DNA from: an uncultured Rhodocyclaceae bacterium
GTDB lineage: Bacteria > Pseudomonadota > Gammaproteobacteria > Burkholderiales > Rhodocyclaceae
Assembly (NCBI GenBank): GCA_964475635.1
Contig: CAYYXS010000019.1
Span: 7,072-71,071 of the forward strand
DNA length: 64,000 bases
Direction of reading: 5' to 3'
Positions 50,517-64,000 of this stretch are shown piece after piece. The position numbers and the translations under genes were made by a program. The notes beneath the pieces were generated by a model. The model did not search any database. It had not been told where the DNA came from and saw only the letters and a list, made by a program, of their open reading frames with translations. Position 1 is the stretch's first letter. Each line of letters begins with the position of its first letter.

Positions 50517-50601
50517 TGGTGCGAAGGGCGGGACTTGAACCCGCACGCCTCGCGGCGCTGGAACCTAAATCCAGTGCGTCTGCCAATTCCGCCACCTTCG
50601 C
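50517..50601 (-). tRNA. tRNA-Leu(TAG)
   Basis: 85 nt with long variable arm; anticodon arm CTGGA-TTTAGGT-TCCAG; 3' CCA. Confidence 0.96.
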
Positions 50602-52325: not shown

Positions 52326-53609
52326 ATGCACGTCGCCATCATCGGCGCGGGCTATGCCGGCATGGCGACGGCGGCGGAACTCGCCGCACAGGGGGTGCGC
52401 ACCAGCGTCTTCGAAACCTCGCGCACCCTGGGCGGACGCGCGCGCCGCATCGAGCTGCACGGCCAGCCGCTCGACAACGGCCAGCACATCCTGGTCGGCG
52501 CCTATCGCGAACTGCTGCGCCTGATGCGGCTGGTCGGCGCCGATCCGGAGGTCCTGCTCGAGCGGCTTCCGCTGGCCATGCACTACCCGGGCAGGATGCG
52601 CCTCGCCGCCCCGCGCCTGCCGGCGCCGCTGCATCTGGCGGCGGCCCTTCTCACCGCGCGCGGTCTGCCCTTCCCGGCACGCCTGGCCGCGGTGCGCTTC
52701 ATGCGCCGGCTGCAACAGGACGGCTTCCGGCTGTCCCGGGACATCGCAGTCGCCGATCTGCTGACGCGCCATGGCCAGCATGAAGCCGTGCGGCGCTACC
52801 TGTGGGAACCGCTCTGCGTCTCGGCGCTCAACACGCCGCCGGCCGAAGCCTCGGCCCAGGTTTTCCTCAACGTCCTGCGCGACAGCCTGGCCGCGGAGCG
52901 CGAGGCGAGCGACCTGCTCATCGCGCGCACCGATTTCTCGGCGCTGTTCCCCGAGCCGGCCGAGCGCTTTGTGCTGGCACGCGGCGGCGAGGTACTGCGC
53001 GGCTGCCGCATCGGTGCCGTCACCCGGGATCCCTACGGCTTCCGCCTCGCGGGCGATCCGTCCGGCCGCAGCTACACGCATGTCGTGGCGGCGGTGGCGC
53101 CCTATCACCTCGCCCCCCTGGCGGCAAAACTGCCCCGGCTGCAACCGACGCTGGACACCGTTTCGCGCCTCGAGCACGAGCCGATCCTCACCGTCTACCT
53201 TGCCTATCCGCAGCCAGTGCACCTGCCCGGCGCCATGGTCGGCGTGGGCGGCACGGCCCATTTCCTGTTCCGTCGCAGCGAGCGAATCGTCGCCGCCGTG
53301 ACGAGCGCGCGCGGCCCCCATCTGGATCTGCCGCGCGAAGCATTGCTTGCGCGCATGCAGGCGGAAATCGAGGCCGTCGCCGGGCCCCTGCCGCCGCCGG
53401 CCTGGACGCAGACCGTCGTCGACCGGCGCGCCACCTTCGCCTGCCGTCCCGGCGTCGAACGGCCGCACAGCGAGACGCCGCTCGCCAACTTCCTGGTCGC
53501 GGGCGATTACGTCGCCTCGGACTACCCGGCGACGCTGGAGGCCGCCGTGCGCAGCGGCGTCGCCTGCGCCCGGATCGTCAGCTCACAAGCCGTCCGCCGC
53601 TCAACCTGA
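52326..53609 (+). CDS. hpnE: Hydroxysqualene dehydroxylase (FAD-dependent)
   Basis: IIGAGYAG, LGGRAR, DNGQHIL, YPATLEAAVRSG; follows hpnCD. Confidence 0.9.
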   Translation: MHVAIIGAGYAGMATAAELAAQGVRTSVFETSRTLGGRARRIELHGQPLDNGQHILVGAYRELLRLMRLVGADPEVLLERLPLAMHYPGRMRLAAPRLPAPLHLAAALLTARGLPFPARLAAVRFMRRLQQDGFRLSRDIAVADLLTRHGQHEAVRRYLWEPLCVSALNTPPAEASAQVFLNVLRDSLAAEREASDLLIARTDFSALFPEPAERFVLARGGEVLRGCRIGAVTRDPYGFRLAGDPSGRSYTHVVAAVAPYHLAPLAAKLPRLQPTLDTVSRLEHEPILTVYLAYPQPVHLPGAMVGVGGTAHFLFRRSERIVAAVTSARGPHLDLPREALLARMQAEIEAVAGPLPPPAWTQTVVDRRATFACRPGVERPHSETPLANFLVAGDYVASDYPATLEAAVRSGVACARIVSSQAVRRST

Positions 53610-54267
53610 GCTCGCGGCTGCAGCGCGCGGCGATCGCCGCATCGTGCGTCACCAGCACCAACGTCGTGCCCCGCTCGGCATTGAGGGCGAACATCAGGTC
53701 GATGATCGCCGCGCCGGTGGCGGCGTCGAGGTTTCCGGTCGGTTCGTCGGCCAGCAGCAGGCGAGGTTTCACGGCGAAGGCCCGTGCGATGGCGACGCGC
53801 TGCTGCTCGCCGCCGGACAGATGCTTCGGGTAATGGCCGAGACGCTCGGCGAGGCCGGCGCGCGCCAGCAACTGCTCCGCATCGGCGCGCGCCCCGGAGC
53901 GCCCGGCCAGTTCCAGCGGCAGCATGACATTCTCCAGGGCGGTGAGCGCCGGCAGCAGCTGGAAGGACTGGAAGACGAAGCCGAGCATGGCGCCGCGCAA
54001 TTCTGCGCGCGCATCCTCGTCGAGGGTGGATAGGTCATGCCCGGCCAGACGCACGCGTCCTTGCGTCGGAACATCCAGGCCGGCCAGCAGCCCAAGCAGC
54101 GTCGATTTGCCCGAACCGGAGGCACCGACGATCGCCACCGCCTCGCCGGCCATGACCTTGAAGGAAATCTCGTGCAGAATCGTCAGGCGGCCGTCGCCGC
54201 TGGGCACTTCCTTGCCAAGCGACTCGGCCTCAACCATGGGTGCCGATGTGTCGAAACTGAAATTCAT
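53578..54267 (-). CDS. ABC ATPase (YbbA/LolD-like)
   Basis: GASGSGKS, LSGGEQQR, LADEPTGNLD; start uncertain (54237 or 54267). Confidence 0.88.
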   Translation of the reverse strand: MNFSFDTSAPMVEAESLGKEVPSGDGRLTILHEISFKVMAGEAVAIVGASGSGKSTLLGLLAGLDVPTQGRVRLAGHDLSTLDEDARAELRGAMLGFVFQSFQLLPALTALENVMLPLELAGRSGARADAEQLLARAGLAERLGHYPKHLSGGEQQRVAIARAFAVKPRLLLADEPTGNLDAATGAAIIDLMFALNAERGTTLVLVTHDAAIAARCSRELRLSGGRLVS

Positions 54268-54859
54268 CTCCGCGGGATTCTTTCTTCTCTTCTCGTTCGC
54301 CGTCCACGCGGCGGGCAGCATCCTAGTCGTCGGCGACAGCCTGTCGGCCGGCTACGGCCTCGCCCAGGGCCAGTCCTGGCCGGCGCTGCTGGAAAAGCGC
54401 CTGCGCGAACAGCGCCTGGATTATAGCGTCGTCAATGCCAGCATCAGCGGCGACACCACGGCGGGCGGCGCCAGCCGCCTCGGCGCCGCGCTCGACCGGG
54501 CGAAGCCCTCGATCGTCATCATCGCGCTGGGGGGCAACGATGGCCTGCGGGGGCTGCCCGTGGCAGCCATGCGCGACAACCTGAACGCCATGCTCGAAAC
54601 CGCGCGCATGCGCAGGGCGCGCATCGTGCTGGCCGGCATGAGGCTGCCGCCCAACTACGGCAGTGACTACACGCAGGCCTTCGAGCGCAGCTATGCCGAC
54701 CTGGCGCGCCGCCACAAGGCAGCGCTGGTACCCTTCCTGCTCGATGGCGTGGCCGAGCGGCGCGAGTTGTTCCAGTCCGACAACATCCATCCGACTGCCG
54801 AAGCCCAGCCGATCATTCTCGACACTGTCTGGAGGGTGTTGCGCCCGCTGCTCAAATGA
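54248..54859 (+). CDS. tesA: SGNH arylesterase / acyl-CoA thioesterase I
   Basis: Signal peptide, GDSLSAGYG, NASISGDTT, LGGNDGLRG, DNIHP; start uncertain (54236 or 54248). Confidence 0.9.
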   Translation: MSKLKFISAGFFLLFSFAVHAAGSILVVGDSLSAGYGLAQGQSWPALLEKRLREQRLDYSVVNASISGDTTAGGASRLGAALDRAKPSIVIIALGGNDGLRGLPVAAMRDNLNAMLETARMRRARIVLAGMRLPPNYGSDYTQAFERSYADLARRHKAALVPFLLDGVAERRELFQSDNIHPTAEAQPIILDTVWRVLRPLLK

Positions 54860-55889
54860 CCGTCAGGCCAGGCGTCCTCGCCTCCAGCCGGCCGATGGCG
54901 CGCGCCTCGGCAAAACCGGCGCCGTGCAGCTCGGCCAGCACGGCGGATTCCGCTTCCGGCGCGCAGGCAATCAGCAGGCCGCCGCTGGTCTGCGGATCGG
55001 TGAGCAGCTTCTGCTGCCAGTCGGCCATGCCTTCGGGCAGGCTCACCTCGGCGCCGTAGCCGTTCCAGTTGCGTGCCGAGGCGCCGGTGGATATGCCTTC
55101 TTTCACGAAGCCAACGGCCTCGGGGATCAGCGGCAAATCGGCGAAGCGCAGCGTGGCGCCGAGCTTCGAGCCGCGGCAGAGTTCCAGCAGGTGGCCGGCC
55201 AGGCCGAAGCCGGTGACGTCGGTCAGGGCATGCACGCCGTCCATCTCGGCCAGACGCGCGCCCGCCGTATTGAGCTGCGTCGTGTGACGGATCATGGTGG
55301 CATAGCCCTCGGGCGTCAGCAGGCCTTTCTTCAGCGCCGCGGAGAGGATGCCGACGCCGAGCGGCTTGCCGAGGATCAGCGCATCGCCCGCCCGCGCGCC
55401 GCTGTTCCTTTTGACGCGCTGCGGATGCACCAGGCCGAGGGCCACCAGGCCGTAGATCGGTTCCAGCACGTCGATGGAATGGCCGCCGGCGATGGGAATG
55501 CCGGCTTCGGCGCAGACCGACTCGCCGCCGGCAAGGATCCTGCGGATCACTTCCAGCGGCAGCTTGTCGAGCGGCATGCCGACCACGGCCAGCGCCATGA
55601 TCGGCCGCCCGCCCATGGCGTAGATGTCGGACAGGGCGTTGGTGGCGGCGATGCGGCCGAAGTCGTAGGGGTCGTCCACGATGGGCGTGAAGAAATCCGT
55701 CGTGGCGACGATGGCCTGCTCGTCGTTGAGCTTGTAGACCGCCGCGTCGTCGGCGGTTTCCGTGCCGACGATGAGCTCCTTCGGCATGCTGCGCAGCGGC
55801 GTGTCGGCGAGCAGCTCGGTCAGCACGGCCGGCGCGATTTTGCAGCCGCAACCGCCGCCATGGGAGAATTGGGTGAGTTTGATATCCAT
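54852..55889 (-). CDS. selD: Selenide, water dikinase (Cys form)
   Basis: LTQFSHGGGCGCK, DDAAVY, TTDFFTP, AATNALSDIYAMG, TDVTGFGL, DPQTSGGLL. Confidence 0.97.
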   Translation of the reverse strand: MDIKLTQFSHGGGCGCKIAPAVLTELLADTPLRSMPKELIVGTETADDAAVYKLNDEQAIVATTDFFTPIVDDPYDFGRIAATNALSDIYAMGGRPIMALAVVGMPLDKLPLEVIRRILAGGESVCAEAGIPIAGGHSIDVLEPIYGLVALGLVHPQRVKRNSGARAGDALILGKPLGVGILSAALKKGLLTPEGYATMIRHTTQLNTAGARLAEMDGVHALTDVTGFGLAGHLLELCRGSKLGATLRFADLPLIPEAVGFVKEGISTGASARNWNGYGAEVSLPEGMADWQQKLLTDPQTSGGLLIACAPEAESAVLAELHGAGFAEARAIGRLEARTPGLTVI

Positions 55890-55896
55890 GATTGAA

Positions 55897-56949
55897 ATGA
55901 AATCGACAGGCGTTGCGAACCTAACACAGCTGGGCGAATTTGACGAGATCATCGACGTGCGCTCGCCGGCCGAGTATGCCGAAGACCACATCCCCGGCGC
56001 GGTCAATTGCCCAGTGCTCTCCGACGAGGAGCGCGCCCGCGTCGGCACGCTCTACAAGCAGGCATCGCCCTTCGCCGCCAAGAAGCTCGGCGCCACGCTG
56101 GTCGCCCGCCATATCGCCGAGCATATCGAAACGCGCTTCCTCGACCGGCCGCGCGAATGGCGTCCGCTGGTCTACTGCTGGCGCGGCGGCAAGCGCAGCG
56201 GCGCCATGAGCCACGTGCTGCGCCAGATCGGCTGGCCGGCCTGCGCGCTGGAAGGCGGCTACAAGTCCTGGCGCCGCCATGTCGTGGCGGAACTGGCCGT
56301 GCTGCCGCGCCGCTTCGCCTTCCGCGTCGTCACCGGTGCCACCGGCAGCGGCAAGAGCCGCCTGCTGGAAGCGCTCGCCGCGCAGGGCGCGCAGGTGCTC
56401 GACCTGGAACGGCTGGCGGCGCACAAGGGTTCGGTGCTCGGCGGCCTGCCCGACGAGGCCCAGCCCTCGCAGAAGATGTTCGAGAGCCGCCTGCTCGCCG
56501 TGCTGGGGAGACTGACTTTATCGGCGCCGATCTACGTCGAGGCGGAGAGCCGCAGGATCGGACAGATTCAGGTTCCGGATGCGCTGCTGGAAACCATGCG
56601 CGCCAGCCCCTGCCTGCGCATCGAGGCCACCGATGCCGCGCGCGTCGCCTTCCTCATCGGCGACTACGACTACTTCCTCGCCGACCCCGCCGCGCTCAAG
56701 GAGAAGCTCGCCTGCCTGCGCGAGCTGCAGAGCGGCGAGACGCTGTCGCGCTGGAACGCGCTCGCAGACGCCGGAGACTGGCCGGCGCTGGTGGCCGAGC
56801 TGCTGGCGCAGCACTACGATCCACTCTACAAGCGCTCGCAGGGAAAGAACTACGTCCGTTTCGCCGATGCGCCGCGCTTCGCCACGGACGATCTTTCGCC
56901 GGCCGGCCTGGCGCGGCTGGCGCAGGAGATCCTCGCTACATCTGCCTGA
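55897..56949 (+). CDS. mnmH: tRNA 2-selenouridine(34) synthase (SelU/YbbB)
   Basis: Rhodanese IIDVRSPAEY...YCWRGGKRS, P-loop GATGSGKS, HKGSVLG, VEAESRRIG; start 55888 or 55897. Confidence 0.94.
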   Translation: MKSTGVANLTQLGEFDEIIDVRSPAEYAEDHIPGAVNCPVLSDEERARVGTLYKQASPFAAKKLGATLVARHIAEHIETRFLDRPREWRPLVYCWRGGKRSGAMSHVLRQIGWPACALEGGYKSWRRHVVAELAVLPRRFAFRVVTGATGSGKSRLLEALAAQGAQVLDLERLAAHKGSVLGGLPDEAQPSQKMFESRLLAVLGRLTLSAPIYVEAESRRIGQIQVPDALLETMRASPCLRIEATDAARVAFLIGDYDYFLADPAALKEKLACLRELQSGETLSRWNALADAGDWPALVAELLAQHYDPLYKRSQGKNYVRFADAPRFATDDLSPAGLARLAQEILATSA

Positions 56950-57697
56950 ACAGATGCGCGTAGGCGCGGCTCACCGTGACCGTCTCCGGCCGGTCGCGCA
57001 GGCTGAGCAGCACGCGGCCGCTCCCGTCGTGGCGGGCCGCCGTGACGAACGCGGCGTTCACGATGGTGCCGCGATGCACCTGCCAGAAAGCCTCCGCGTC
57101 CAGCTGTTCGGCCAGCTCCCTGATCGGCGTGCGGATGAGCAGCTCGCCCGAGGCGGTCATCACCGCCGTATATTTGTCCGCCGCCTGGAAGTAGCGCACC
57201 TCGGCCACCGCCACCAGACGCACCGCCTCGCCGACCGAGGCGCGGATCCACTTCAGCGGCTGCGGTCTCGCCGTGTTCTGCAGACTGACTTTCTCCAGCG
57301 CGGCCATCAGCCGGCTGCGCTCCCTGTCCGAAGGCTCTGCGACGGCGCGGCGCAGGCGCGCCACCGTCTGCGCCAGGCGCGCCTCTTCCGCCGGCTTGAG
57401 CACGTAATCGAGCGCCGCGCGCTCGAAGGCCTCCACCGCGTACTGGTCGTAGGCGGTGACGAACACCACCTGGCAGGCAAAGTCCAGCCGCGCCGCCACC
57501 TCCAGGCCGGAGAGCCCCGGCATGCGGATGTCGAGAAAGGCGATGTCGGGCTTGTCCGCTGCCAGGCGCGCCAGCGCCGCCGGGCCGTCGTGGCAAACGG
57601 CGACGATTTCCAGATCCGGCCACAGTGCGGCGATGCGGCGGCGCAGATCTTCCGCCAGCAGCGGCTCGTCGTCGGCGATCAGCGCGGTGGGCTTCAT
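56936..57697 (-). CDS. LytTR-family response regulator
   Basis: MKPTALIADDEP, AFLDIRMP, FVTAYDQYA, DYVLKP, then LytTR motifs KYT, FWQVHRGTIVN, VSRAY. Confidence 0.95.
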   Translation of the reverse strand: MKPTALIADDEPLLAEDLRRRIAALWPDLEIVAVCHDGPAALARLAADKPDIAFLDIRMPGLSGLEVAARLDFACQVVFVTAYDQYAVEAFERAALDYVLKPAEEARLAQTVARLRRAVAEPSDRERSRLMAALEKVSLQNTARPQPLKWIRASVGEAVRLVAVAEVRYFQAADKYTAVMTASGELLIRTPIRELAEQLDAEAFWQVHRGTIVNAAFVTAARHDGSGRVLLSLRDRPETVTVSRAYAHLFRQM

Positions 57698-58911
57698 AGC
57701 GGCGCCAGCAGCGGCCTGACGAGGCGGCGCTCCAGTTCCGCCAGGGCCTGGGGCGGCTCGCCCTGCGCGGCGACGCCGAGCCAGGCGCGCAGCGCCGGCA
57801 GCAGCGGGCGCAGGCTGCGCGCCGCGCAATGGCCGTCGTCGCGCACGATCCAGGCGCTCACCCGCGCCGAGCCGCGCAGGCGGGCATAGCTGGCCGGCGG
57901 CACGTAGGGATCGCGCTCGCCGTTGACGATCAGCGTCGGCGGCAGCCGCTCCAGGGCGAAGGACGAGAGGTCGAAGCGGCGCAGCGCGGCGGTGAGCGCG
58001 GCATGCTCCGCCGTCTGCGGCAGGCCGAGCGCGGCGCGCAGGATGCCGCCCATGCCGTTGGGCAGGCCGTCCTGCTGCGCCGGCGCCGCCTCGCCGGTAG
58101 GGCCGCCGATGGCAATGGCGAAATCGACCGCACCGAGCAGCGCCAGCTTGAGCGCCCAGTGGCCGCCGAAGCTCATGCCGAACACGCCGGCCGCCGGCGC
58201 CGCGCCGCGCAGGGCGTGCAGCACGCCCAGATACACCGCCTCGGCATCCCCGGCGAGCGGCAACTGCGACTCGCCGGTGCCGGGCATGTCGAAGGCGGCC
58301 ACGCGCAGGCCGGCCATGCCGCTGAAGAACAGGCAAAGCGGGTGCATCTCGATCTTGAAGGTATCCACGCCGCCGCTGAGCAGCAGCAGGGGCGCATCCG
58401 GCGCGCGCGGCAGATACTCGTGCAGCGCCACCGCCGTGACGCCGCCGCGCCACGGCACCTCGATCACGCGGCGGCGTACGGGCAGGGCAAAGCCGGCCAT
58501 GGCGCGGGCGAAATACCCGAGCTGGCGCTGCGCCGCCGCGCGCCGCAGCGGCGTGGCGGCGACGGGAAAGCGCGCCGCACCCAGGCAGAGCGCCGCCGGC
58601 AGCCAGTCCTGGCGCGCCGCGTGTTCCTCGGCCAGGCGGTTCCATTCGAAGCACCAGCCGCCGGCCGCGTCGCTCCAGGCATCGACGATGGCGGCACGCG
58701 CACGATCCAGGTCCGCCGCCGGAATGCCCCAGCCGAGGAACTGTGCGGCGCGCTCGGCAAACAACTCCTCGACGGAAAACGCGAAGGGCTCGAAACCGAC
58801 GCCCCCGCGCAGCGGCAGAAATGGCGCGCCGTCTTCCTGCGCCGACGCCTCGGCGCCAAGCAGGGCCAGCCCGGCCGCTCCCAGCACATGCAAAAAATCG
58901 CGTCTGATCAT
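57694..58911 (-). CDS. Alpha/beta hydrolase (FrsA/DUF1100-like) with twin-arginine signal peptide
   Basis: MIRRDFLHVLGAAGLALLGAEASA Tat signal; GGVDTFK, FDMPGTGES, GMSFG nucleophile, GERD, DGH. Confidence 0.8.
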   Translation of the reverse strand: MIRRDFLHVLGAAGLALLGAEASAQEDGAPFLPLRGGVGFEPFAFSVEELFAERAAQFLGWGIPAADLDRARAAIVDAWSDAAGGWCFEWNRLAEEHAARQDWLPAALCLGAARFPVAATPLRRAAAQRQLGYFARAMAGFALPVRRRVIEVPWRGGVTAVALHEYLPRAPDAPLLLLSGGVDTFKIEMHPLCLFFSGMAGLRVAAFDMPGTGESQLPLAGDAEAVYLGVLHALRGAAPAAGVFGMSFGGHWALKLALLGAVDFAIAIGGPTGEAAPAQQDGLPNGMGGILRAALGLPQTAEHAALTAALRRFDLSSFALERLPPTLIVNGERDPYVPPASYARLRGSARVSAWIVRDDGHCAARSLRPLLPALRAWLGVAAQGEPPQALAELERRLVRPLLAPL

Positions 58912-58934
58912 ATCTTCCTCTTCTCTCTCCCCCG

Positions 58935-58962
58935 CCCCTCTCACCCCAAGCGGGGAGAGGGG
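58935..58962. repeat. REP-like hairpin between kinase and hydrolase genes
   Basis: CCCCTCTCACCCC-AAGC-GGGGAGAGGGG. Confidence 0.65.
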
Positions 58963-58971
58963 CGAAATTGT

Positions 58972-59982
58972 TCATGCCGGCAGTTCGAGCGTCGCCACCA
59001 CGCCCTGCCCCGCATTCGCCCGCACCTCCAGGCGGGCCGCCTCGCCGAACAGCGCGACCAGCCGGCTGCGCACGTTCTCCAGGCCGAAGCCGCTGCCGGC
59101 GCCGCTGCCGTCGCGCAGGCCGGCGCCGGTGTCGGCGACGGTGAGGCGCAGGCGGCCGTCCGCCAGCCGCGCGGCGATGCGCAGCTCGCCGCCGCCCACC
59201 TGCGGCTCGATGCCGTGGGTGACGGCGTTCTCCACCAGCGGCTGCAGCAGCAGCAGCGGGAAGGGGCGCGCGAGCAGTTCCGGCGGCACGTCGAAGGCAT
59301 AGCGCAGGCGCGGCCCCAGGCGCAGGCCGAGGATGTCGAGGTAGCGCCGCAGCAGCTCGATCTCGTCGCCGAGGGTGGATTCCGCCTCGCGCGTGCGCTG
59401 CAGCGTGGCGCGCAGGTAGGCAATCAGATCGGCGAGCAGGCGCTCGGCGCGCTCGGGATCGCTGCGGATCAGCACCGAAAGGTTGGCCAGGGTGTTGAAC
59501 AGGAAATGCGGCTCGATCTGCGCCTGCAGCATGCGCAGTTGCGCGTCGACGCGCTCCTTCTCCGCCAGCGCCTGGCGCAGCCGGCGCTCCTGCAGCTCGC
59601 CCTCGAGCAGGCCCAGGCGCTCGCGCAGGTAGAACAGGGCGCTGATGCCGGCGCCGAAAATGAGGCCGATCAGCAGCGACTGCCAGGCCATCTCGGCCAG
59701 CCAGGCGCTGTCGCGCGCGCCGAGCAGCAGCACGGACAGGCCGATCCCCGCCGCCACCCCGGCGGGCAAGGCGAAGAGCATGGCGTAGAGCCGCGCCGGC
59801 CCGTGGGCCGTCCAGCGATAGACGGCGAGACAGGCGGCGTAGATGGACAGGCCGATGCACTCGGAGATGAGCAGGTTCTCGTCGAAGGCGTGGCCGACGC
59901 CGATGGCGGTAAGGAAGGCCGCGATCAGCGCGTTGATGACGGCGATGGAGGCGAGCTGCGGCAGCGACAAAGACAGGGTCAT
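58972..59982 (-). CDS. LytS/AlgZ-type membrane sensor histidine kinase
   Basis: About 4 N-terminal TM segments, LQAQIEPHFLFNTL, LQPLVENAVTHG, DTGAG, GFGLENV. Confidence 0.93.
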   Translation of the reverse strand: MTLSLSLPQLASIAVINALIAAFLTAIGVGHAFDENLLISECIGLSIYAACLAVYRWTAHGPARLYAMLFALPAGVAAGIGLSVLLLGARDSAWLAEMAWQSLLIGLIFGAGISALFYLRERLGLLEGELQERRLRQALAEKERVDAQLRMLQAQIEPHFLFNTLANLSVLIRSDPERAERLLADLIAYLRATLQRTREAESTLGDEIELLRRYLDILGLRLGPRLRYAFDVPPELLARPFPLLLLQPLVENAVTHGIEPQVGGGELRIAARLADGRLRLTVADTGAGLRDGSGAGSGFGLENVRSRLVALFGEAARLEVRANAGQGVVATLELPA

Positions 59983-59991
59983 GGCCGCATG

Positions 59992-60900
59992 TTATACGGC
60001 GTGCGCCGCGCCTGTCACTTCGAGATAGACCTGCTCCAGCCCCACCGGCAGCAGGGCGAGCGAGGTGAGCTCCAGGCCGGCCAGGGCGGCGGCGATCTCC
60101 GCCAGGCCGAAGGCACGCGGCAGCCACAGCGTGGTGCGGCCGCCGTAGCGGCGCAGCGGCCAGCCGCGCGCGCCCGCCCAGGCCTTGAGCGCCGCCTCGT
60201 CGCGCGCCTCGACCGCCGCCAGCTGCGGCGCGGCGATGTGCCCGCGCAGCGCGTCGAGCGTGCCCTCGGCGGCGATGCGCCCGGCGCGCAGGATGCCGAT
60301 GCGCGCGCACAGCCGCTGCGCCTCTTCGAGATGGTGCGTGGTGAGCAGGATGGCCATGCCGTCGGCGTTGAGGCGGCGGATCAGTTCCCACAGTTCGTGG
60401 CGCGCCTCGACGTCGAGTGCCGCCGTCGGCTCGTCGAGGATGAGCAGGCGCGGCGCATGCGCCAGCGCCGCGGCGATGTGCACGCGCCGCTGCCAGCCGC
60501 CGCTCAGATTGCCGACGCGGCTGCGGGCGTACTCGCCGAGGCGAAAGGCCTCGATCAGCTCGGCCACGCGCGCGCGCCGCCGCGCCGCCGGCAGGCCGTA
60601 GAGGCGGGCGAAGAAGTCGAGGTTCTCGGCGCAGGTCAGCTCGCGGTAGAGGGCCACTTCCTGCGCCGCGTAGCCGATCAGGCGCCGGCCCTCCCCGCCC
60701 GTCGCCGCGCCCGCCAGCCGGATGCTGCCGACATCGGCGGCGAGCAGGTTGCACAGGATGTTGATGGCGGTGGTCTTGCCCGAGCCGTTCGGCCCGAGCA
60801 GGCCGTAGACCTCGCCCGGCGCGATGGAGAAAGTCAGTCCCTGCAGTACGGCGCGTCCGGCGAAGGATTTCTCCAGGCCTTCGATGTCGACGATGTTCAT
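59992..60900 (-). CDS. ABC-2 exporter ATP-binding protein (DrrA/NatA-like)
   Basis: GPNGSGKTT, LSGGWQRR, LILDEPT, LTTHHLEEA. Confidence 0.92.
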   Translation of the reverse strand: MNIVDIEGLEKSFAGRAVLQGLTFSIAPGEVYGLLGPNGSGKTTAINILCNLLAADVGSIRLAGAATGGEGRRLIGYAAQEVALYRELTCAENLDFFARLYGLPAARRRARVAELIEAFRLGEYARSRVGNLSGGWQRRVHIAAALAHAPRLLILDEPTAALDVEARHELWELIRRLNADGMAILLTTHHLEEAQRLCARIGILRAGRIAAEGTLDALRGHIAAPQLAAVEARDEAALKAWAGARGWPLRRYGGRTTLWLPRAFGLAEIAAALAGLELTSLALLPVGLEQVYLEVTGAAHAV

Positions 60901-61670
60901 GCCCGCCTCTCCTGCTCCAGCATGGCGCGGTAGGCGCGCGCACCCAGCCACAGGGCGAGCGCGGCGAAGGCGGCGAGGAAGGCGACATGCGGCTGCACCT
61001 CGGCCAGCGTGCGGCCCTCGGCCCAGACGCCCTTCAGTGCCTGGTTCATGTGATAGACCGGATCGGCCTGGGCCAGCGCGAGCAGGCTCGGCGGCAGCAG
61101 CGACACCGGGAAGAAGGTACCGCCCAACACCAGCAGCGGCACGCCGAAGCCGGCGACGGGGCCGTTCACGTCCTCGGTGCGGCGGGCGAAGCGCGCGCCG
61201 AAGAAGAAGCCCAGGCCGACGTAGGCGCAGACGCTGAGCGCGACGATCGCCAGCCCCAGGGGCAGGCTGCCGTGGAAGCGCCCGCCGAAGGCCCGCGCGA
61301 CGGCGTACACGATGGCGGTCTGCGCCAGGGCGATGACCAGATAGGCCGCAACGATGCCGAGGAAGCAGGCGGCCGGCGCCAGCGGCGAGAGCAGCAGCCG
61401 GCGCAGGGTGCGCCGCTCGCGCTCGGCGGCCAGCGTCGCCACGGTGCCGCCGAGGCAGCTGAAGAACAGCGCCGCGCCGATCAGGATGCCCGGCGCCGTG
61501 TGGTCGAAGGACGGCCCCGGCTGCTTGCCCGAAGCATACATGGTGCCGAACAGCAACAGCATCAGGGTCGGGAACACCGCCCAGAAGATCAGGCTGCGCC
61601 GCGTGCGCAGGAGCTCGATCAAGATGCGCCGGGCGATGGCCCAGGTCTCGGCGGGAATGCGGGCGATCAC
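60897..61670 (-). CDS. ABC-2 exporter permease
   Basis: Multiple TM segments, AERERRTLRRLLLSP, GGTFFP; ATGA overlap with the ATPase gene. Confidence 0.9.
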   Translation of the reverse strand: MIARIPAETWAIARRILIELLRTRRSLIFWAVFPTLMLLLFGTMYASGKQPGPSFDHTAPGILIGAALFFSCLGGTVATLAAERERRTLRRLLLSPLAPAACFLGIVAAYLVIALAQTAIVYAVARAFGGRFHGSLPLGLAIVALSVCAYVGLGFFFGARFARRTEDVNGPVAGFGVPLLVLGGTFFPVSLLPPSLLALAQADPVYHMNQALKGVWAEGRTLAEVQPHVAFLAAFAALALWLGARAYRAMLEQERRA

Positions 61671-61747
61671 GCCAGTTCTCCCAGGATGGCCTGCAGGGCG
61701 GCGGCGAACACGGCCGGGCCGAGCGCCAGTTGTGCGGCGAGATGCAT
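61667..61747 (-). CDS. Putative 26-aa hydrophobic micro-protein MHLAAQLALGPAVFAAALQAILGELA
   Basis: TGATG overlap with the upstream 2TM stop, GTGA overlap with the permease start, SD-like GGAAGG upstream. Confidence 0.45.
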   Translation of the reverse strand: MHLAAQLALGPAVFAAALQAILGELA

Positions 61748-62043
61748 CAGCGCCCTTCCCTGCGGCTGCGTTCGGTCAGCTCGCGCAGCTTGCGTTCTTC
61801 CCACTCGGCACCGAGGAAGCGCCCGCCGAAAATAACGCTCGCGCCGTGGATGACGACGGCGATGCCCCAGCCGGCGAGCGGCCACACCGACCACAGGCGG
61901 CCGCCGCCGGCAAGCAGGTTGAGGATGAGCAGGCCGGCATTCACGGCGAGGTACACGCCGAGATGGACGTAGAAGCCGCGCAGCCGGCGCACCTGGCGGC
62001 GCGCAGCCGCATATTCGGGAGTGTCTTCGAAGGTCGTTGCCAT
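61747..62043 (-). CDS. 2TM domain protein
   Basis: ARRQVRRLRGFYVHLGVYLAVN...WSVWPLAGWGIAVVIH...WEERKLREL; AAGGAG RBS. Confidence 0.88.
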   Translation of the reverse strand: MATTFEDTPEYAAARRQVRRLRGFYVHLGVYLAVNAGLLILNLLAGGGRLWSVWPLAGWGIAVVIHGASVIFGGRFLGAEWEERKLRELTERSRREGR

Positions 62044-62056
62044 TGCATCGCTCCTT

Positions 62057-62524
62057 TCAGGCGGGTTTGAAGACCATGAAGTAGAGGTTCGCCGCCGGCA
62101 GCACGGTGGCGAGAACGCCCACCCGCAGCCAGAGGCGGTTCAGCCGCCAGTACGCGGGCGGAATCTCGCCGCCGCCGGCGAAGCCGCGCGCCAGGCGCGC
62201 CAGTTTGATCTGCAGCGGAATCAGGATGCCGACCCAGAGCAGGCCGGAGAGCACGAACAGCGCCTGCCCCCAGGCCAGCCAGGGCGCGGCGAGCGGCAGA
62301 TCGTGCAGCAGGGCGCCGGCATAGCCGCCGGCGCCGAGCAGCGTCGCCCCGCCGAAGGTGAACACCCAGTCGGTCAGCGTCACCTGGCGCTGGGCGAAGG
62401 CAACGATGGCGGGGTTGCGCGTGCGGTCGGCCATCACCTTCCACCAGCCGGTGACGATGATGTTGCCGAGGAACAGCACGACGCCGGCCAGATGCAGGGT
62501 CTTCAGTGCGAGATAGGCGTCCAT
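62057..62524 (-). CDS. DUF2269-family integral membrane protein
   Basis: YLALKTLHLAGVVLFLGNI...TDWVFT...YFMVFKP; GGAG RBS. Confidence 0.8.
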   Translation of the reverse strand: MDAYLALKTLHLAGVVLFLGNIIVTGWWKVMADRTRNPAIVAFAQRQVTLTDWVFTFGGATLLGAGGYAGALLHDLPLAAPWLAWGQALFVLSGLLWVGILIPLQIKLARLARGFAGGGEIPPAYWRLNRLWLRVGVLATVLPAANLYFMVFKPA

Positions 62525-62648
62525 GACTGTCTCCGACGGGCCACCCGAAGGAGGCGGCGCGTAACGATTGGAAACCGTGCCTCGCACGGTTGAACCGTCG
62601 TCACCCCTGTCCTTGGGAAAGGGGCTGGCGGCAAGGTCATTCTCATCC

Positions 62649-63227
62649 TCAGCTGTCCTCGCGCGCCGCGCGGCGGACCGCTTCCAGCCACTTGTCGCGC
62701 TGCGCCGGCGAGGAGGTCTTCACCGGGCCGAACTGCGCGATGCGCACCGGCTTGATGCCGCAGAACTCGAGGATGGTGCGGCGCATCTGGTTGTGGCCCG
62801 GCATGCGGTAGAACCAGCGGTAGTACCAGGGCGGCGTGTCCATGGTGACCAGCAGGCGCGCGCTGCGCCCGGCGAGCAGGCGATCCCACCAGGGCGAATC
62901 CTTGCGGTAGCTGAAGGCGAAGCCGGGCAGAAAGACGCGCTCGATGAAGCCCTTCAGCAGCGCCGGCAGGCCGCCCCACCAGGTCGGGTAGACGAAGGCG
63001 AGATGGTCGGCCCAGAGAATCGCTTCCTGCGCCGCAGCCAGATCCGCCTCCGGCGCCTGCTCGGCGCGATAGCCGGCATGCAGCACCGGATCGAAGGCCA
63101 GGTCGGCCAGCGCCAGCTCGCGCACTTCGGCGCCGGCCGCGCGCGCCGCCTCGCCGTAGCCGGCGGCGAGCGCACCGCACAGGCTGTCCTGCCGCGGATG
63201 GCCGAGAATGACCAGGATTTTCTTCAT
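62649..63227 (-). CDS. Flavodoxin-fold NAD(P)H-dependent oxidoreductase (NQO/MdaB/KefF-like)
   Basis: ILVILGHP, ADHLAFVYPTWWGGLPALLKGFIERVF, LLVTMDTP. Confidence 0.9.
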   Translation of the reverse strand: MKKILVILGHPRQDSLCGALAAGYGEAARAAGAEVRELALADLAFDPVLHAGYRAEQAPEADLAAAQEAILWADHLAFVYPTWWGGLPALLKGFIERVFLPGFAFSYRKDSPWWDRLLAGRSARLLVTMDTPPWYYRWFYRMPGHNQMRRTILEFCGIKPVRIAQFGPVKTSSPAQRDKWLEAVRRAAREDS

Positions 63228-63257
63228 GACTGCCTCCATCGGGTTGGCGATGGCGGC

Positions 63258-63326
63258 AGATTAGCCGGACGGCTGCCACCGGCTCAACGGCGTTGCGACG
63301 AAACGGCGGAATCGCAGGATGAGTCG
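63258..63326 (-). promoter_or_regulatory. Candidate LytTR-activated promoter of the accessory cassette
   Basis: Imperfect direct repeat CGACTCATCC / CGTTTCGTCG with 21-bp period, then TTGAGC-N18-TAATCT. Confidence 0.45.
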
Positions 63327-63351
63327 TGCAAAAGGCGGCGTAAAAGACGGC

Positions 63352-63903
63352 TCAAGGCAACCTGACCGGAACCGTGCCCTTCACCGCGCACAGCTTCTGC
63401 ACCATGGCCGGCTTCGGCAGCGTCGCCTCGCCCTGCTCGAAGGCGACCACCGTCAGCCGGGCGCCGAAGGCCTCGAGCAACTCCCCCGGCCGCAGCAGGA
63501 AATCCGGGTTGGAAGGCCGGCCGAAGCGCTCGTTGCCCTGCATGAAGGTCTCGTAGATGAGCACGCCGCCGTCCGCCAGGGCCTCGATCAGGCGGGGAAA
63601 CAGCGGCCTGTGCAGGTAGTTGGCGACGACGATCCCCTCGAAGCGACGGCCCGCCAAAGGCCAGGCTCCGCTCTCGAGGTCGGCCTGCAGTGCCTCAATG
63701 CCCGCTCCCAGTCCCGCCAATGCGACCGCATCGCGATCGACCGCCGTCACCCGCCAGCCGCCGGCCTCAAGGAAGCGCGCATGGCGGCCGTAACCACAGG
63801 CAAGATCGAGCATCGCCCCCCCGCCCGGGACGAGGGTCGCGAAGCGGCAAACCCAGGCTGAGGGTTGCGAGAGCGGCTCGTGTATGCATGCGGGAGTCGA
63901 CAC
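63352..63903 (-). CDS. Class I SAM-dependent methyltransferase (TehB-like fold)
   Basis: MLDLACGYGRH, VTAVDRD, VVANYLHR, LIYETF; start uncertain (GTG 63903). Confidence 0.85.
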   Translation of the reverse strand: MSTPACIHEPLSQPSAWVCRFATLVPGGGAMLDLACGYGRHARFLEAGGWRVTAVDRDAVALAGLGAGIEALQADLESGAWPLAGRRFEGIVVANYLHRPLFPRLIEALADGGVLIYETFMQGNERFGRPSNPDFLLRPGELLEAFGARLTVVAFEQGEATLPKPAMVQKLCAVKGTVPVRLP

Positions 63904-64000
63904 GCCGCGATTGTATTGCATGCGCAGGAAGCAGGTTATAAGCTGAGCCCATGAAGCCAACCGAGGGCGCCCACTGCACCGAGCCCGTGCGAGGGCACGT

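Follow-up and report, generated by a model that had tools for sequence, protein, structure and literature searches.

The locus lies in a 64,000-nt stretch of DNA (the window) whose host is an uncultured groundwater Rhodocyclaceae-type betaproteobacterium. Positions 56936-63351 hold a string of co-oriented, tightly packed genes on the minus strand (Table 1). The preliminary description had counted nine such genes, mostly overlapping or within 15 nt of each other. Open reading frame calls and translations bore out the frames and the strand, and at six of the eight junctions the genes overlap or lie at most 13 nt apart; the ninth "gene", however, is a gene remnant (see below). In gene order, the junctions are 124 nt, 13 nt, a 1-nt overlap (TGATG), a GTGA overlap, an ATGA overlap, 9 nt, 60 nt, and a second ATGA overlap, which couples the start of the regulator gene to the stop of the hydrolase gene. 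The stop of the convergent mnmH gene (ending at 56949) overlaps that of the regulator by 14 nt, as had been described, and a methyltransferase gene, with its end at 63352, lies at the other flank. A 6124-bp sequence from an independent groundwater metagenome assembly is 100% identical to the string, and the gene arrangement was also reproduced by contig tiling in four groundwater metagenome runs, with contigs spanning the NQO-DUF2269 and NQO-methyltransferase junctions. Predicted stem-loops in the 124-nt spacer are not significant (z -1.1), and no operator copy was found there. The 60-nt spacer holds a strong hairpin, which is missing from the relative L083 and whose core 10-mer occurs once in the window. 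Internal promoters or an attenuator could reside in these two junctions.

Table 1. Features of the string and of its upstream region, in window coordinates.
Feature	Position	Strand	Remarks
Distal direct repeat, putative LytTR operator, CGACTCATCCT	63316..63326	-	starts exactly 21 bp upstream of proximal repeat
Proximal direct repeat, putative LytTR operator, CGTTTCGTCGCA	63294..63305	-	no other exact copy in the 64-kb window
Putative activator-dependent promoter	63258..63287	-	-35-like TTGAGC (63287-63282), 18-nt spacer, -10-like TAATCT (63263-63258)
Ribosome-binding site	63237-63233		GGAGG
NQO/Flavodoxin_2	63227-62649	-	192 aa from MKKIL; alternative start 63239
NQO-DUF2269 spacer	62525..62648	-	124 nt
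DUF2269 integral membrane protein	62524-62057	-	155 aa, length as in relatives; PF10027, E 6e-27
2TM-domain protein	62043-61747	-	98 aa; PF13239, E 3.9e-25
26-codon ORF ("micro-peptide")	61747-61667	-	
ABC-2 type permease	61670-60897	-	257 aa, 6 predicted TM helices
ABC ATPase	60900-59992	-	302 aa from ATG overlapping permease stop
LytS-type histidine kinase	59982-58972	-	336 aa
G+C-rich hairpin in 60-nt kinase-hydrolase spacer	58930..58967	-	-32.3 kcal/mol, z -2.6; no U-tract
FrsA/AbyA5-like alpha/beta hydrolase	58911-57694	-	405 aa
Twin-arginine-like signal of the hydrolase, MIRRDFLHVLGAAGLALLGAEASA	58911-58840		N-terminal
LytTR-family response regulator (REC + LytTR)	57697-56936	-	253 aa

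The kinase has four N-terminal TM helices with minimal loops and carries an H-box (EPHFLFN, H159), an N-box (QPLVENA), and G1 (DTGAGL) and G2 (GFGL) boxes. Its homologues number in the thousands, with 50-77% identity in Rhodocyclales MAGs. AlgZ (FimS) of Pseudomonas aeruginosa, likewise a LytS-type kinase of ca. 340-360 aa, also has four TM helices at its N terminus and lacks a large periplasmic domain, and the gene for its REC-LytTR regulator, AlgR, lies directly downstream. The two kinases share the H-box pattern xPHFLFNxL and the N-box pattern LQPLxENA, whereas the G1 and G2 boxes kept in the window kinase are missing from AlgZ (PMC4064291). Their 38% identity is confined to the kinase core, the TM sensor regions being without similarity. 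The regulators are 35% identical; the best NCBIfam match of the window protein, the BtsR model, scores 141 bits against a cutoff of 246. The genetic contexts also differ, in that the window pair is not beside hemC and has convergent mnmH downstream. In many relatives, the gene for the 2TM protein (predicted helices at 23-41 and 53-71) precedes that for the kinase. An association of 2TM proteins with LytTR systems had been noted and gained support: the 2TM domain is fused to the His_kinase domain PF06580 in six of the nine multidomain family members tested, and we regard the 2TM protein as a probable partner of the kinase.

The NQO protein matches PF02525 (E 3.7e-41) and has, across its full length, the Flavodoxin_2 domain common to NAD(P)H:quinone oxidoreductases of the NQO1/MdaB/KefF type. 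Its nearest solved structure is the NADPH quinone oxidoreductase 3lcm (E 2e-26), and it falls under every NCBIfam equivalog cutoff; it is a candidate for either a detoxifying enzyme or a KefF-like regulatory subunit. The ABC ATPase has the expected motifs (Walker A GPNGSGKT, signature LSGG, and Walker B ILDEP) and resembles the DrrA subfamily, at 228 bits under a cutoff of 312. An 84% identical permease occupies the same operon position in one relative, and copies at 65-70% identity occur across phyla.

The FrsA-like hydrolase (PF06500, 35 bits versus a cutoff of 22) is wedged between the kinase and regulator genes. Its Ser258-Asp345-His372 triad (numbering of the 416-aa ORF) is conserved. The structure model (pLDDT 88.7) shares its fold and the N-terminal helical domain with AbyA5, FrsA, DHPON hydrolase, and AntI/Ayg1, its closest structural relatives (TM-score 0.65-0.80), with only 16-24% identity to any solved member; unlike these, it is encoded between a kinase and the cognate regulator. 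Among 35 aligned family members, the twin-arginine-type extension is present only in the window protein and its 79% identical relative, and the TAT_signal profile scores 15-19 bits, under the Pfam cutoff of 22.7. Co-occurrence of this hydrolase family with the other genes had been expected, but in 80 other genomes it was never found beside LytS, LytTR, 2TM, DUF2269, or NQO.

The 26-codon ORF had been taken for a micro-peptide gene in its own right, and we rejected it as an independent gene family. An intact lipase-like hydrolase gene stands at its position in relatives, and the last ca. 80 nt before the permease start align at the DNA level with that gene. The peptide end, ...AALQAILGELA*, likewise matches ...AALQEILKELA* in L175 and ...DALQAIVAEAA* in L090. 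On these alignments, the ORF is what remains of the 3' end of a Hydrolase_4/monoacylglycerol-lipase-like gene that was deleted; it still provides a Shine-Dalgarno sequence and the stop-start overlap for the permease. Both hydrolases, FrsA-like and lipase-like, bear predicted N-terminal export or anchor signals, and it is plausible that the hydrolase with the Tat signal took the place of the lost, membrane-anchored lipase-like enzyme.

In Rhodocyclales relatives, the same site runs from the methyltransferase (MTase) through a variable segment to the LytS kinase (HK), the LytTR regulator (RR; 74-82% identity), and convergent mnmH. It holds zero to five accessory genes; between promoter and kinase there are zero to four, or five where the hydrolase follows the kinase. 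The order is MTase-HK-RR in Sulfuritalea L093, MTase-2TM-HK-RR in Zoogloeaceae L091, MTase-DUF2269-2TM-HK-RR in L085-L089, MTase-NQO-2TM-HK-RR in L095, MTase-DUF2269-2TM-Hydrolase_4-HK-RR in L090, and MTase-2TM-Hydrolase_4-ABCperm-ABCatp-HK-RR, followed by convergent mnmH-selD, in the ERZ27297709 contig and L175. The accessory sets are thus none, 2TM, DUF2269 with 2TM, NQO with 2TM, or 2TM with the lipase-like hydrolase, with or without the same ABC-2 exporter, and they vary among relatives with 70-77% kinase identity. The DUF2269 orthologues of L085-L090 (70-81% identity) are in the same position as in the window, and 85% identical NQO copies occupy the same slot in L095 and L083. The window gene set is a mosaic, or union, of modules found singly in relatives (NQO, DUF2269, 2TM, and the ABC-2 pair), plus the FrsA-like hydrolase. 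In none of the relatives examined did mnmH directly abut the methyltransferase; the kinase/regulator pair was always between them. The view of the string as a self-contained cassette inserted there does not hold, since the kinase/regulator core, often with 2TM and DUF2269, is a syntenic resident.

The intergenic region at the operon head contains two direct repeats that we consider a putative LytTR operator. The distal window repeat is weak, agreeing with the family consensus CGTTTCGCTCC at 5 of 11 positions; in relatives, most sites at operon heads have a repeat at exactly -21 that agrees at 7-11 of 11. The core CGTTTCGTCG of the proximal repeat is invariant across nine aligned operon-head intergenic regions. 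In 738 kb of kinase loci, the exact operator 11-mer occurred 12 times on the operon strand and never on the other, and it was absent from both strands of control loci comprising twice as much DNA (1.48 Mb). With one mismatch allowed, the counts (operon/other strand) were 42/8 in kinase loci versus 19/26 in control DNA. The window -35 and -10 hexamers are weak, falling under the threshold of a consensus promoter scan, which made no call. In the window, as in about 20 related loci, a TAnnnT motif follows the proximal repeat at 30-31 nt, and the geometry is fixed whichever gene comes first: repeats 21 bp apart, with the -10-like hexamer 30-31 nt downstream. The conserved repeat of the window family, CGTTTCGTCGC, resembles the AlgR box CCGTTCGTC (PMC4064291), and the relative L099 carries an exact CCGTTCGTCGCA. 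AlgR sites are often not regularly spaced (PMC4064291), in contrast to the 21-bp regularity of the window-type repeats. As had been suggested, the string has the appearance of one regulated unit: its genes are tightly coupled, and a single conserved operator/promoter of LytTR type precedes them. No RNA runs containing its sequence were found, so we infer both the operon status and the autoregulation.

The same operator also precedes, as three repeats 21 bp apart, a stand-alone ABC-2 pair (82% identical), and it heads MacB-type ABC/LolA-like operons preceding distant kinase relatives. Exporters of two types, ABC-2 and MacB/FtsX, thus stand before kinases of this family, and these loci and operator sites agree with the earlier remark that LytS/LytTR pairs can control adjacent ABC exporters, an arrangement that recurs in this kinase family. 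As described in PMC3498285, the LytS-type kinase NatK and the LytTR regulator NatR of Bacillus subtilis control the adjacent ABC-2 exporter NatAB (Ogura et al. 2007), which is counted there among cell-envelope stress systems. Compared by description rather than by sequence, the window resembles NatK/NatR-NatAB in pairing LytS/LytTR with an adjacent ABC-2 exporter. It differs in that the exporter lies inside the kinase/regulator operon, with permease (257 aa, 6 TM) before ATPase, and in that most relatives lack it. In Bce-type modules (BceRS-BceAB), as with other intramembrane-sensing kinases, a transporter or a small membrane protein serves as the co-sensor. The window kinase, with its minimal loops, is similarly encoded beside small membrane proteins and an ABC exporter, which is of the ABC-2 type in the window and of the MacB/FtsX type in distant relatives, but Bce-type systems are HisKA/OmpR rather than PF06580/LytTR, and co-sensing in the window is hypothetical. 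BtsS/BtsR (YehU/YehT) and YpdA/YpdB of Escherichia coli also belong to the LytS/LytTR family; unlike BtsS and YpdA, the window kinase lacks 5TM-Lyt and GAF domains.

We consider it fairly probable that the string is a single, autoregulated operon built around an ancestral LytS kinase/LytTR pair, with AlgZR-like intramembrane sensing and a plastic effector slot. With its four TM helices and near-absence of loops, the kinase would probably sense a perturbation within the membrane, probably working with the 2TM protein, and would phosphorylate the LytTR regulator. The phosphorylated regulator would then bind the operator repeats as a dimer and activate the weak promoter, raising kinase and regulator expression. 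Read-through and translational coupling would raise every lodged gene: the cytoplasmic quinone-type reductase, DUF2269, the ABC-2 exporter, and the exported hydrolase. The promoter-proximal part would serve as a plastic slot in which effectors related to the envelope or to lipophiles are captured; the targets would be in-operon membrane, exporter, and hydrolase genes, whereas those of AlgZ/AlgR are pili or alginate genes.

A rather unlikely alternative is that the extra genes are functionally unrelated, neutral insertions at a permissive landing site that are being lost, so that only the kinase and regulator, perhaps with 2TM, matter. The variable gene content and the gene relic inside the operon fit this idea, as does the close relative L083/L084, in which 2TM is frameshifted, the kinase and ABC genes are missing, and the regulator is truncated at residue 31; this decay implies that at least some genes of the string are dispensable and may be neutral passengers. 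However, genes of like function turn up repeatedly: extracytoplasmic alpha/beta hydrolases of two unrelated families have been captured, between 2TM and kinase/ABC or between kinase and regulator, and exporters of two types precede kinases of one family. The inserted genes are also intact and translationally coupled, with conserved catalytic motifs, and the operator on the stand-alone ABC-2 pair argues for the exporter as a true regulon member.

The preliminary description had instead proposed one inducible detoxification pathway, in which NQO reduces, the Tat hydrolase hydrolyses, and the ABC-2 exporter expels a xenobiotic that is sensed at the envelope, be it a redox-active quinone, a phenazine, or a polyketide-type compound. 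We judge this improbable. All of the genes do lie behind one operator/promoter, NQO is a quinone-reductase-type flavoprotein, the ATPase is DrrA-like, and the nearest folds of the hydrolase include AbyA5 and the polyketide-shortening C-C hydrolases AntI, Ayg1, and Wdyg1. Yet the substrate assignment draws on family names and on fold relatives of only 16-24% identity. The hydrolase family never adjoined the other genes in the 80 genomes, and the ancestral hydrolase role was held by a different, lipase-like enzyme. The reductase is cytoplasmic, whereas the hydrolase is predicted to be exported. Moreover, L095 has NQO but neither ABC nor hydrolase, the ERZ27297709 contig and L175 have ABC but no NQO, and L085-L089 have DUF2269 with neither of these two. 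Such single gains and losses among close relatives argue against an obligate reduce/hydrolyse/export pathway. Horizontal acquisition of the whole 6.4-kb string between mnmH and the methyltransferase is very improbable. Synteny refutes it for the string taken as one piece: every relative examined has the kinase/regulator pair at exactly the same site, usually accompanied by 2TM and often by DUF2269, and the promoter region is orthologous. The string is flanked by no tRNA (nearest at 50517), integrase, integrase-type or terminal repeats, or Rfam element. On the other side, the hydrolase segment is slightly richer in G+C (0.74-0.77 versus about 0.70) and the ABC-2 pair keeps 65-88% identity between distant phyla, which suggests that those two modules are mobile.

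The gene string at this locus had been described in a preliminary reading as nine co-oriented, tightly coupled genes forming a self-contained cassette. Gene order and coupling were borne out by independent Logan assemblies of several groundwater metagenomes, which reproduce the order at 100% identity, including the NQO junctions; the ninth gene, however, is a relic, and the string is not self-contained. Six of the eight junctions overlap or are separated by no more than 13 nt, the two long ones being NQO-DUF2269 (124 nt) and kinase-hydrolase (60 nt). At one flank the 3' end of the regulator gene overlaps the convergent mnmH by 14 nt, and at the other a small SAM-methyltransferase gene ends at 63352. 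Many short Logan contig "joints" have sides of 20-23 nt and were regarded as k-mer noise stemming from other G+C-rich contigs. No RNA runs containing the locus were found, the matching runs being groundwater DNA metagenomes only. Contigs from three of these runs (X1-X3) all end at one 30-nt overlap, 62437-62466, inside the 5' part of the DUF2269 gene, possibly because strain variants that have and that lack DUF2269 coexist; a further run, X4, yields a contig that spans the break. The G+C content of the window is ca. 70%, and long spurious reading frames are therefore common. A 1350-codon open frame (56936-60988, minus strand) crosses four real genes in another frame upstream of the regulator; it is spurious because of the local G+C content of 70-77%, a warning for any ORF-based reading of the window.

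Features of the locus in the window, in order of transcription
Feature	Coordinates	Strand	Basis or remark
Distal repeat	63326-63316	minus	
Proximal repeat	63305-63294	minus	
-35-like hexamer	63287-63282	minus	
-10-like hexamer	63263-63258	minus	
NQO-type flavoprotein	63227-62649	minus	Pfam, NCBIfam, gene calls on identical public contigs
DUF2269 membrane protein	62524-62057	minus	as for NQO
2TM-domain protein	62043-61747	minus	as for NQO
26-codon ORF	61747-61667	minus	
ABC-2 permease	61670-60897	minus	as for NQO
ABC ATPase	60900-59992	minus	as for NQO
LytS-type histidine kinase	59982-58972	minus	as for NQO
FrsA-like alpha/beta hydrolase	58911-57694	minus	N-terminus MIRRDFL...
REC+LytTR response regulator	57697-56936	minus	as for NQO

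Homologues of the kinase number in the thousands; at 50-77% identity the sources are MAGs of Rhodocyclaceae, Rhodocyclales, Zoogloeaceae and Sulfuritalea. The order at the same site in these relatives is methyltransferase, variable genes, kinase and regulator, with mnmH convergent to them; in most cases selD and genes for a GDSL lipase and an ABC ATPase come next. The interval between methyltransferase and kinase holds no genes in Sulfuritalea (L093; kinase identity 52-54%), only 2TM in a Zoogloeaceae locus (L091; 63%), DUF2269-2TM in five loci (L085-L089; 70-77%), NQO (85% identical) followed by 2TM in L095 (73%), DUF2269-2TM and a Hydrolase_4-type hydrolase in L090 (70%), and 2TM, a Hydrolase_4 hydrolase, an ABC-2 permease (84% identical) and its ATPase on a 23.5-kb contig (70%). 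The gene set of the window is the union of these modules. Because of this synteny, we regard the kinase/regulator pair as resident at the site and the accessory genes as varying module by module; the self-contained cassette first proposed is thus not upheld, and mnmH directly abutting the methyltransferase was seen in none of the relatives examined. Searches for signs of a mobile element revealed no adjacent tRNA, no Rfam family, and only chance-level G+C-rich matches as flanking direct or inverted repeats.

Both resident proteins are readily classified. The kinase matches PF06580 (E 7.8e-23) and PF02518 (E 2.4e-9), with H159, N252 and the G1/G2 glycines invariant in 16 homologues, which places it among LytS-type kinases; the regulator is of the REC+LytTR type (PF00072, E 2.4e-19; PF04397, E 5.1e-20). 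Four TM helices with minimal loops are predicted within the first 117 residues of the kinase, and several TM residues are invariant. The AlgR reference sequence, confirmed by exact look-up and returned alongside AlgZ/FimS, is 35% identical to the window regulator, and AlgZ is 38% identical to the window kinase over residues 104-326 (the kinase core) only; the TM region does not align. AlgZ lacks the G1, F and G2 boxes (PMC4064291). Unlike AlgZ, the window kinase keeps conserved G1 (DTGAGL) and G2 (GFGL) boxes. Similarity confined to the core, an unaligned 4-TM sensor and the presence of these boxes therefore led us to reject AlgZ(FimS)/AlgR orthology and to call the pair AlgZR-like. Membership in BtsS/BtsR (YehUT) was likewise rejected, as the regulator scores 141 bits against the NCBIfam BtsR cutoff of 246 and the kinase has neither PF07694 (5TM-Lyt) nor GAF. 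When the sequences of the regulator, the kinase and the permease were searched against the PDB, the only matches were generic receiver, kinase or ABC ones.

A consensus promoter and terminator scan of the intergenic regions gave no useful result, and the putative promoter was found instead by phylogenetic footprinting. An alignment, over nine loci, of the region from the methyltransferase to the first gene (NQO, DUF2269, 2TM or kinase) revealed CGTTTCGTCGCA, which is almost invariant, then TTGAGC and, 17-18 nt further on, TA(A/G)(T/C)CT. The geometry is constant throughout the kinase family, to identities as low as 35%: the start of a distal repeat (consensus CGTTTCGCTCC) lies exactly 21 bp further upstream, and 30-31 nt separate the proximal repeat from the start of TAnnnT. 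In 738 kb of kinase loci the 11-mer occurs exactly 12 times on the operon strand and 0 times on the other (42 and 8 with up to one mismatch), whereas 1.48 Mb of hydrolase-family loci, used as a control, contain no exact copy on either strand (19 and 26 with up to one mismatch). The window holds a single copy. AgrA-type LytTR operators consist of two direct repeats of ca. 9-11 bp, ca. 21 bp apart, just upstream of the -35 element (PMC4064291). The putative operator matches this arrangement, its two direct repeats being offset by one 21-bp period and adjoining a weak -35; at the level of sequence, this pattern and its geometry are conserved family-wide. The conserved repeat CGTTTCGTCGC resembles the AlgR box CCGTTCGTC, from which it differs by one inserted T, and the exact AlgR 9-mer is present in one relative's locus, L099. 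The 124-nt NQO-DUF2269 spacer (62525-62648) has no counterpart in relatives, its predicted fold is not significant, and it contains no second operator at up to one mismatch. It does hold two similar short motifs ca. 21 nt apart, ACGGTTCAACCG and ACGGTTTCCAATCG, which by the family consensus are not an operator copy.

The same candidate operator connects the regulator family to ABC exporters. At least a dozen distant relatives have the kinase/regulator pair as the last genes of an operon that also encodes an ABC ATPase, a MacB/FtsX (LolCE-like) permease, a protein resembling LolA and another, of 398 aa, without matches in Pfam or NCBIfam (L112 4004-9735; L098, L106-L108, L114, L119, L123, L127, L130, L133, L145, L163 and L164). 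The operator heads these operons wherever this was checked (L098, L106-L108, L112, L119, L123 and L164). A stand-alone ABC-2 permease/ATPase pair (L176/L177, 8814-10778), whose permease is 82% identical to that of the window, is preceded by three repeats exactly 21 bp apart, with a -10-like hexamer at the usual distance; this implies that the pair would be controlled in trans by a regulator of this family encoded elsewhere in that genome. The expectation that LytS/LytTR pairs are tied to ABC exporters is supported by the shared putative operator. The window proteins themselves form an ABC-2 exporter, the permease carrying ABC2_membrane and six TM helices and the ATPase carrying ABC_tran with Walker A/B and signature motifs. 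Scores fell short of the DrrA (228 vs 312 bits) and NodI (198 vs 521 bits) subfamilies, NatA/NatB models were absent among the NCBIfam matches listed for the two proteins, and no characterised homologue of the permease was found among its homologues. The permease (60897-61670; homologues P0205-P0323) is unusually conserved for a membrane protein, with copies of 65-70% identity in MAGs labelled KSB1, Calditrichaceae and Gemmatimonadetes, which suggests a strongly constrained substrate or frequent horizontal transfer.

Association of 2TM proteins with LytTR-type systems, also claimed at the outset, held up on the evidence of gene fusions. The window protein has two TM helices and scores 88 bits against PF13239 (versus 24.8 for membership). 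Most of the ca. 3,000 representative clusters of this family are stand-alone or tandem, and six of the nine multidomain members examined are fused to a LytS-type His_kinase domain; in two of these six, the 2TM domain is the kinase's sole membrane segment. By this Rosetta-stone argument the 2TM protein probably works with the kinase. We found no literature on PF13239 proteins with LytTR systems, and none on the function of DUF2269 beyond passing mentions.

The "micro-peptide" gene is better explained as the remains of a larger one. Some relatives carry, exactly between 2TM and permease (or kinase), a Hydrolase_4-type gene of 306-320 aa, whose product has an N-terminal hydrophobic anchor and is closest, among solved structures, to monoacylglycerol lipases. 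The gene overlaps the 2TM stop with its start and the permease start with its stop, and the 26-codon ORF has both overlaps too. The ORF ends in ...AALQAILGELA*, compared with ...AALQEILKELA* (L175) and ...DALQAIVAEAA* (L090) in the relatives' hydrolases, and its last ca. 80 nt align with them at the DNA level. An independent small-protein family was considered and rejected: the peptide matches the C-terminus of the 306-320-aa hydrolase, has no Pfam match, and is unrelated to the 31-aa ORF that precedes the stand-alone ABC pair in L176. The shared overlaps and matching tail therefore indicate that ca. 0.9 kb of the hydrolase gene was deleted in the lineage of the window. The retained tail carries the Shine-Dalgarno sequence and the stop-start overlap for the permease, which may be the reason it survives.

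The gene for the second hydrolase is an insertion specific to this lineage. Kinase and regulator genes overlap, stop on start, in every relative, whereas in the window they are parted solely by the FrsA-like gene, whose own stop is coupled to the regulator start by an ATGA overlap. The protein scores 35.2 bits against PF06500 (gathering threshold 22) and, apart from one relative at 79%, has no homologue above 47%. Its AlphaFold model is confident (pLDDT 88.7) and includes an N-terminal helical domain; the nearest structures are AbyA5 (TM-score up to 0.80), FrsA and 2,6-dihydroxy-pseudo-oxynicotine hydrolase, along with the polyketide-shortening AntI, Ayg1 and Wdyg1, all within 16-24% identity. 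The Ser-Asp-His triad (S258, D345 and H372) is invariant in an alignment of 35 family members. Judged by the N-terminal features expected of such signals (an S/T-R-R-x-F-L-K motif, then a hydrophobic region and an AxA cleavage site), a Tat signal is likely: only the window protein and its 79% relative, of the 35 aligned, have an extension with RRDFL, a hydrophobic stretch (GAAGLALLGA) and ASA, the other members beginning at a conserved MFTFPLDP. Pfam TAT_signal scores of 15.2 and 18.6 bits fall short of the 22.7 cutoff, and the segment has low pLDDT in the model. Relatives of the hydrolase (35-47% identity) in 80 genome loci have none of the other cassette genes beside them, barring chance ABC ATPases and two unrelated LytTR matches, so the expected co-occurrence failed and the hydrolase is not a usual partner; the closest context, in Curvibacter, comprises cupin, AraC, LysE and decarboxylase genes. 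A G+C-rich hairpin without a U-tract lies in the 60-nt kinase-hydrolase spacer (58930-58967, minus strand; -32 kcal/mol, z -2.6) and is missing from the 79% relative. Possible explanations are an insertion scar, stabilisation of the mRNA or attenuation; a repeated REP-like element was rejected, the core 10-mer occurring once in the window.

The locus encoding the 79% relative (contigs L083/L084) is a decayed derivative, found twice independently in JGI and Logan assemblies. It retains NQO, a frameshifted 2TM, the Tat-type hydrolase and a regulator cut at residue 31, and L083 (1-2707) continues from ca. 2105 onward as unrelated DNA of lower G+C content. This derivative shows that the common ancestor already combined NQO with the Tat-type hydrolase, and that the system is dispensable. 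L083 and the window share TGCCGGCATGA, which is suggestive of formation of L083 by a deletion reaching the very 3' end of the kinase gene; the alignment around it is ambiguous. An extracytoplasmic location is predicted for both hydrolases, and where one occurs the other has been lost; it is therefore plausible that the FrsA-like enzyme is a non-orthologous replacement of the Hydrolase_4-type one.

The preliminary description joined these genes into a pathway that reduces, hydrolyses and exports quinones or polyketides. This proposal is weakened, and the link to detoxification is not established: its genes are distributed independently of one another, and the guess at a substrate has a weak basis. 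The observed features, namely a resident two-component pair, a conserved head operator/promoter, tight coupling, modular gain and loss of accessory genes and a gene relic, are the basis for a regulatory model of the operon that we infer from sequence. The kinase, probably with 2TM, would sense a perturbation within the membrane; the phosphorylated regulator would then activate the putative head promoter, and all genes behind it would be co-induced, including the reductase, DUF2269, the ABC-2 exporter, the exported hydrolase and the two-component system itself. The repeated capture of exporters and of extracytoplasmic hydrolases suggests that the stress concerns the envelope or lipophiles.

This is not a new kind of system but an uncharacterised AlgZR-like LytS/LytTR clade with a well-defined operator and an unusually plastic operon. 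A more inclusive reading, which we consider rather unlikely to hold in all its parts, makes the locus the type locus of this large clade. Its 4-TM kinase, without a sensing domain of its own, would read membrane- or lipid-related stress via the upstream-encoded 2TM and possibly the ABC exporter (Bce-like "flux-sensing"), and the conserved AlgR-like operator would define the regulon. An evolvable slot would be formed by the promoter-proximal part of the operon and even by the junction of kinase and regulator; in this slot exporters and exported hydrolases would be repeatedly captured and swapped, including the exchange of a membrane-anchored lipase-like enzyme for a cytoplasmic-type FrsA-like enzyme with a gained Tat signal.

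Several features of the locus are noteworthy: kinase and regulator are separated by an inserted gene, a normally cytoplasmic enzyme family has acquired a Tat-like signal, and a relic ORF is kept as a coupling device. The locus is a clean example of a putatively autoregulated operon that recruits effector genes by taking them up downstream of its promoter, or even in between its kinase and regulator genes; recruitment re-creates translational coupling at the junctions, and a relic is kept where it feeds the ribosome-binding site of the next gene. What is sensed by AlgZ-type kinases, whose sensor regions are short and TM-only, has yet to be established (PMC4064291). That question is perhaps easier in this clade, where the operator is clearly defined. 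The recurrent partners of the kinase (2TM, DUF2269, two kinds of ABC exporter and exported alpha/beta hydrolases) all point to the envelope, and natural variants differing by single accessory genes make direct tests of co-sensing and regulon membership possible.

The surroundings of the operon are conserved as well. In Rhodocyclales relatives (syntenic in L085-L101) the methyltransferase gene (63352-63960) is without exception the operator's immediate upstream neighbour and has the same orientation; it is near the selenium genes mnmH and selD, and a weak TehB-like match covers its SAM motif only. Beyond the regulator, a GDSL/TesA-like lipase gene divergent from a YbbA-like ABC ATPase gene, then selD and mnmH (selU), occupy 53578-56949 and are conserved in relatives, a grouping that resembles the E. 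coli tesA-ybbA...ybbB region. In two further loci (L161 3980-8352 and L170 1377-5314) kinase/regulator pairs of this family are duplicated in tandem, with operator-like repeats upstream of each.
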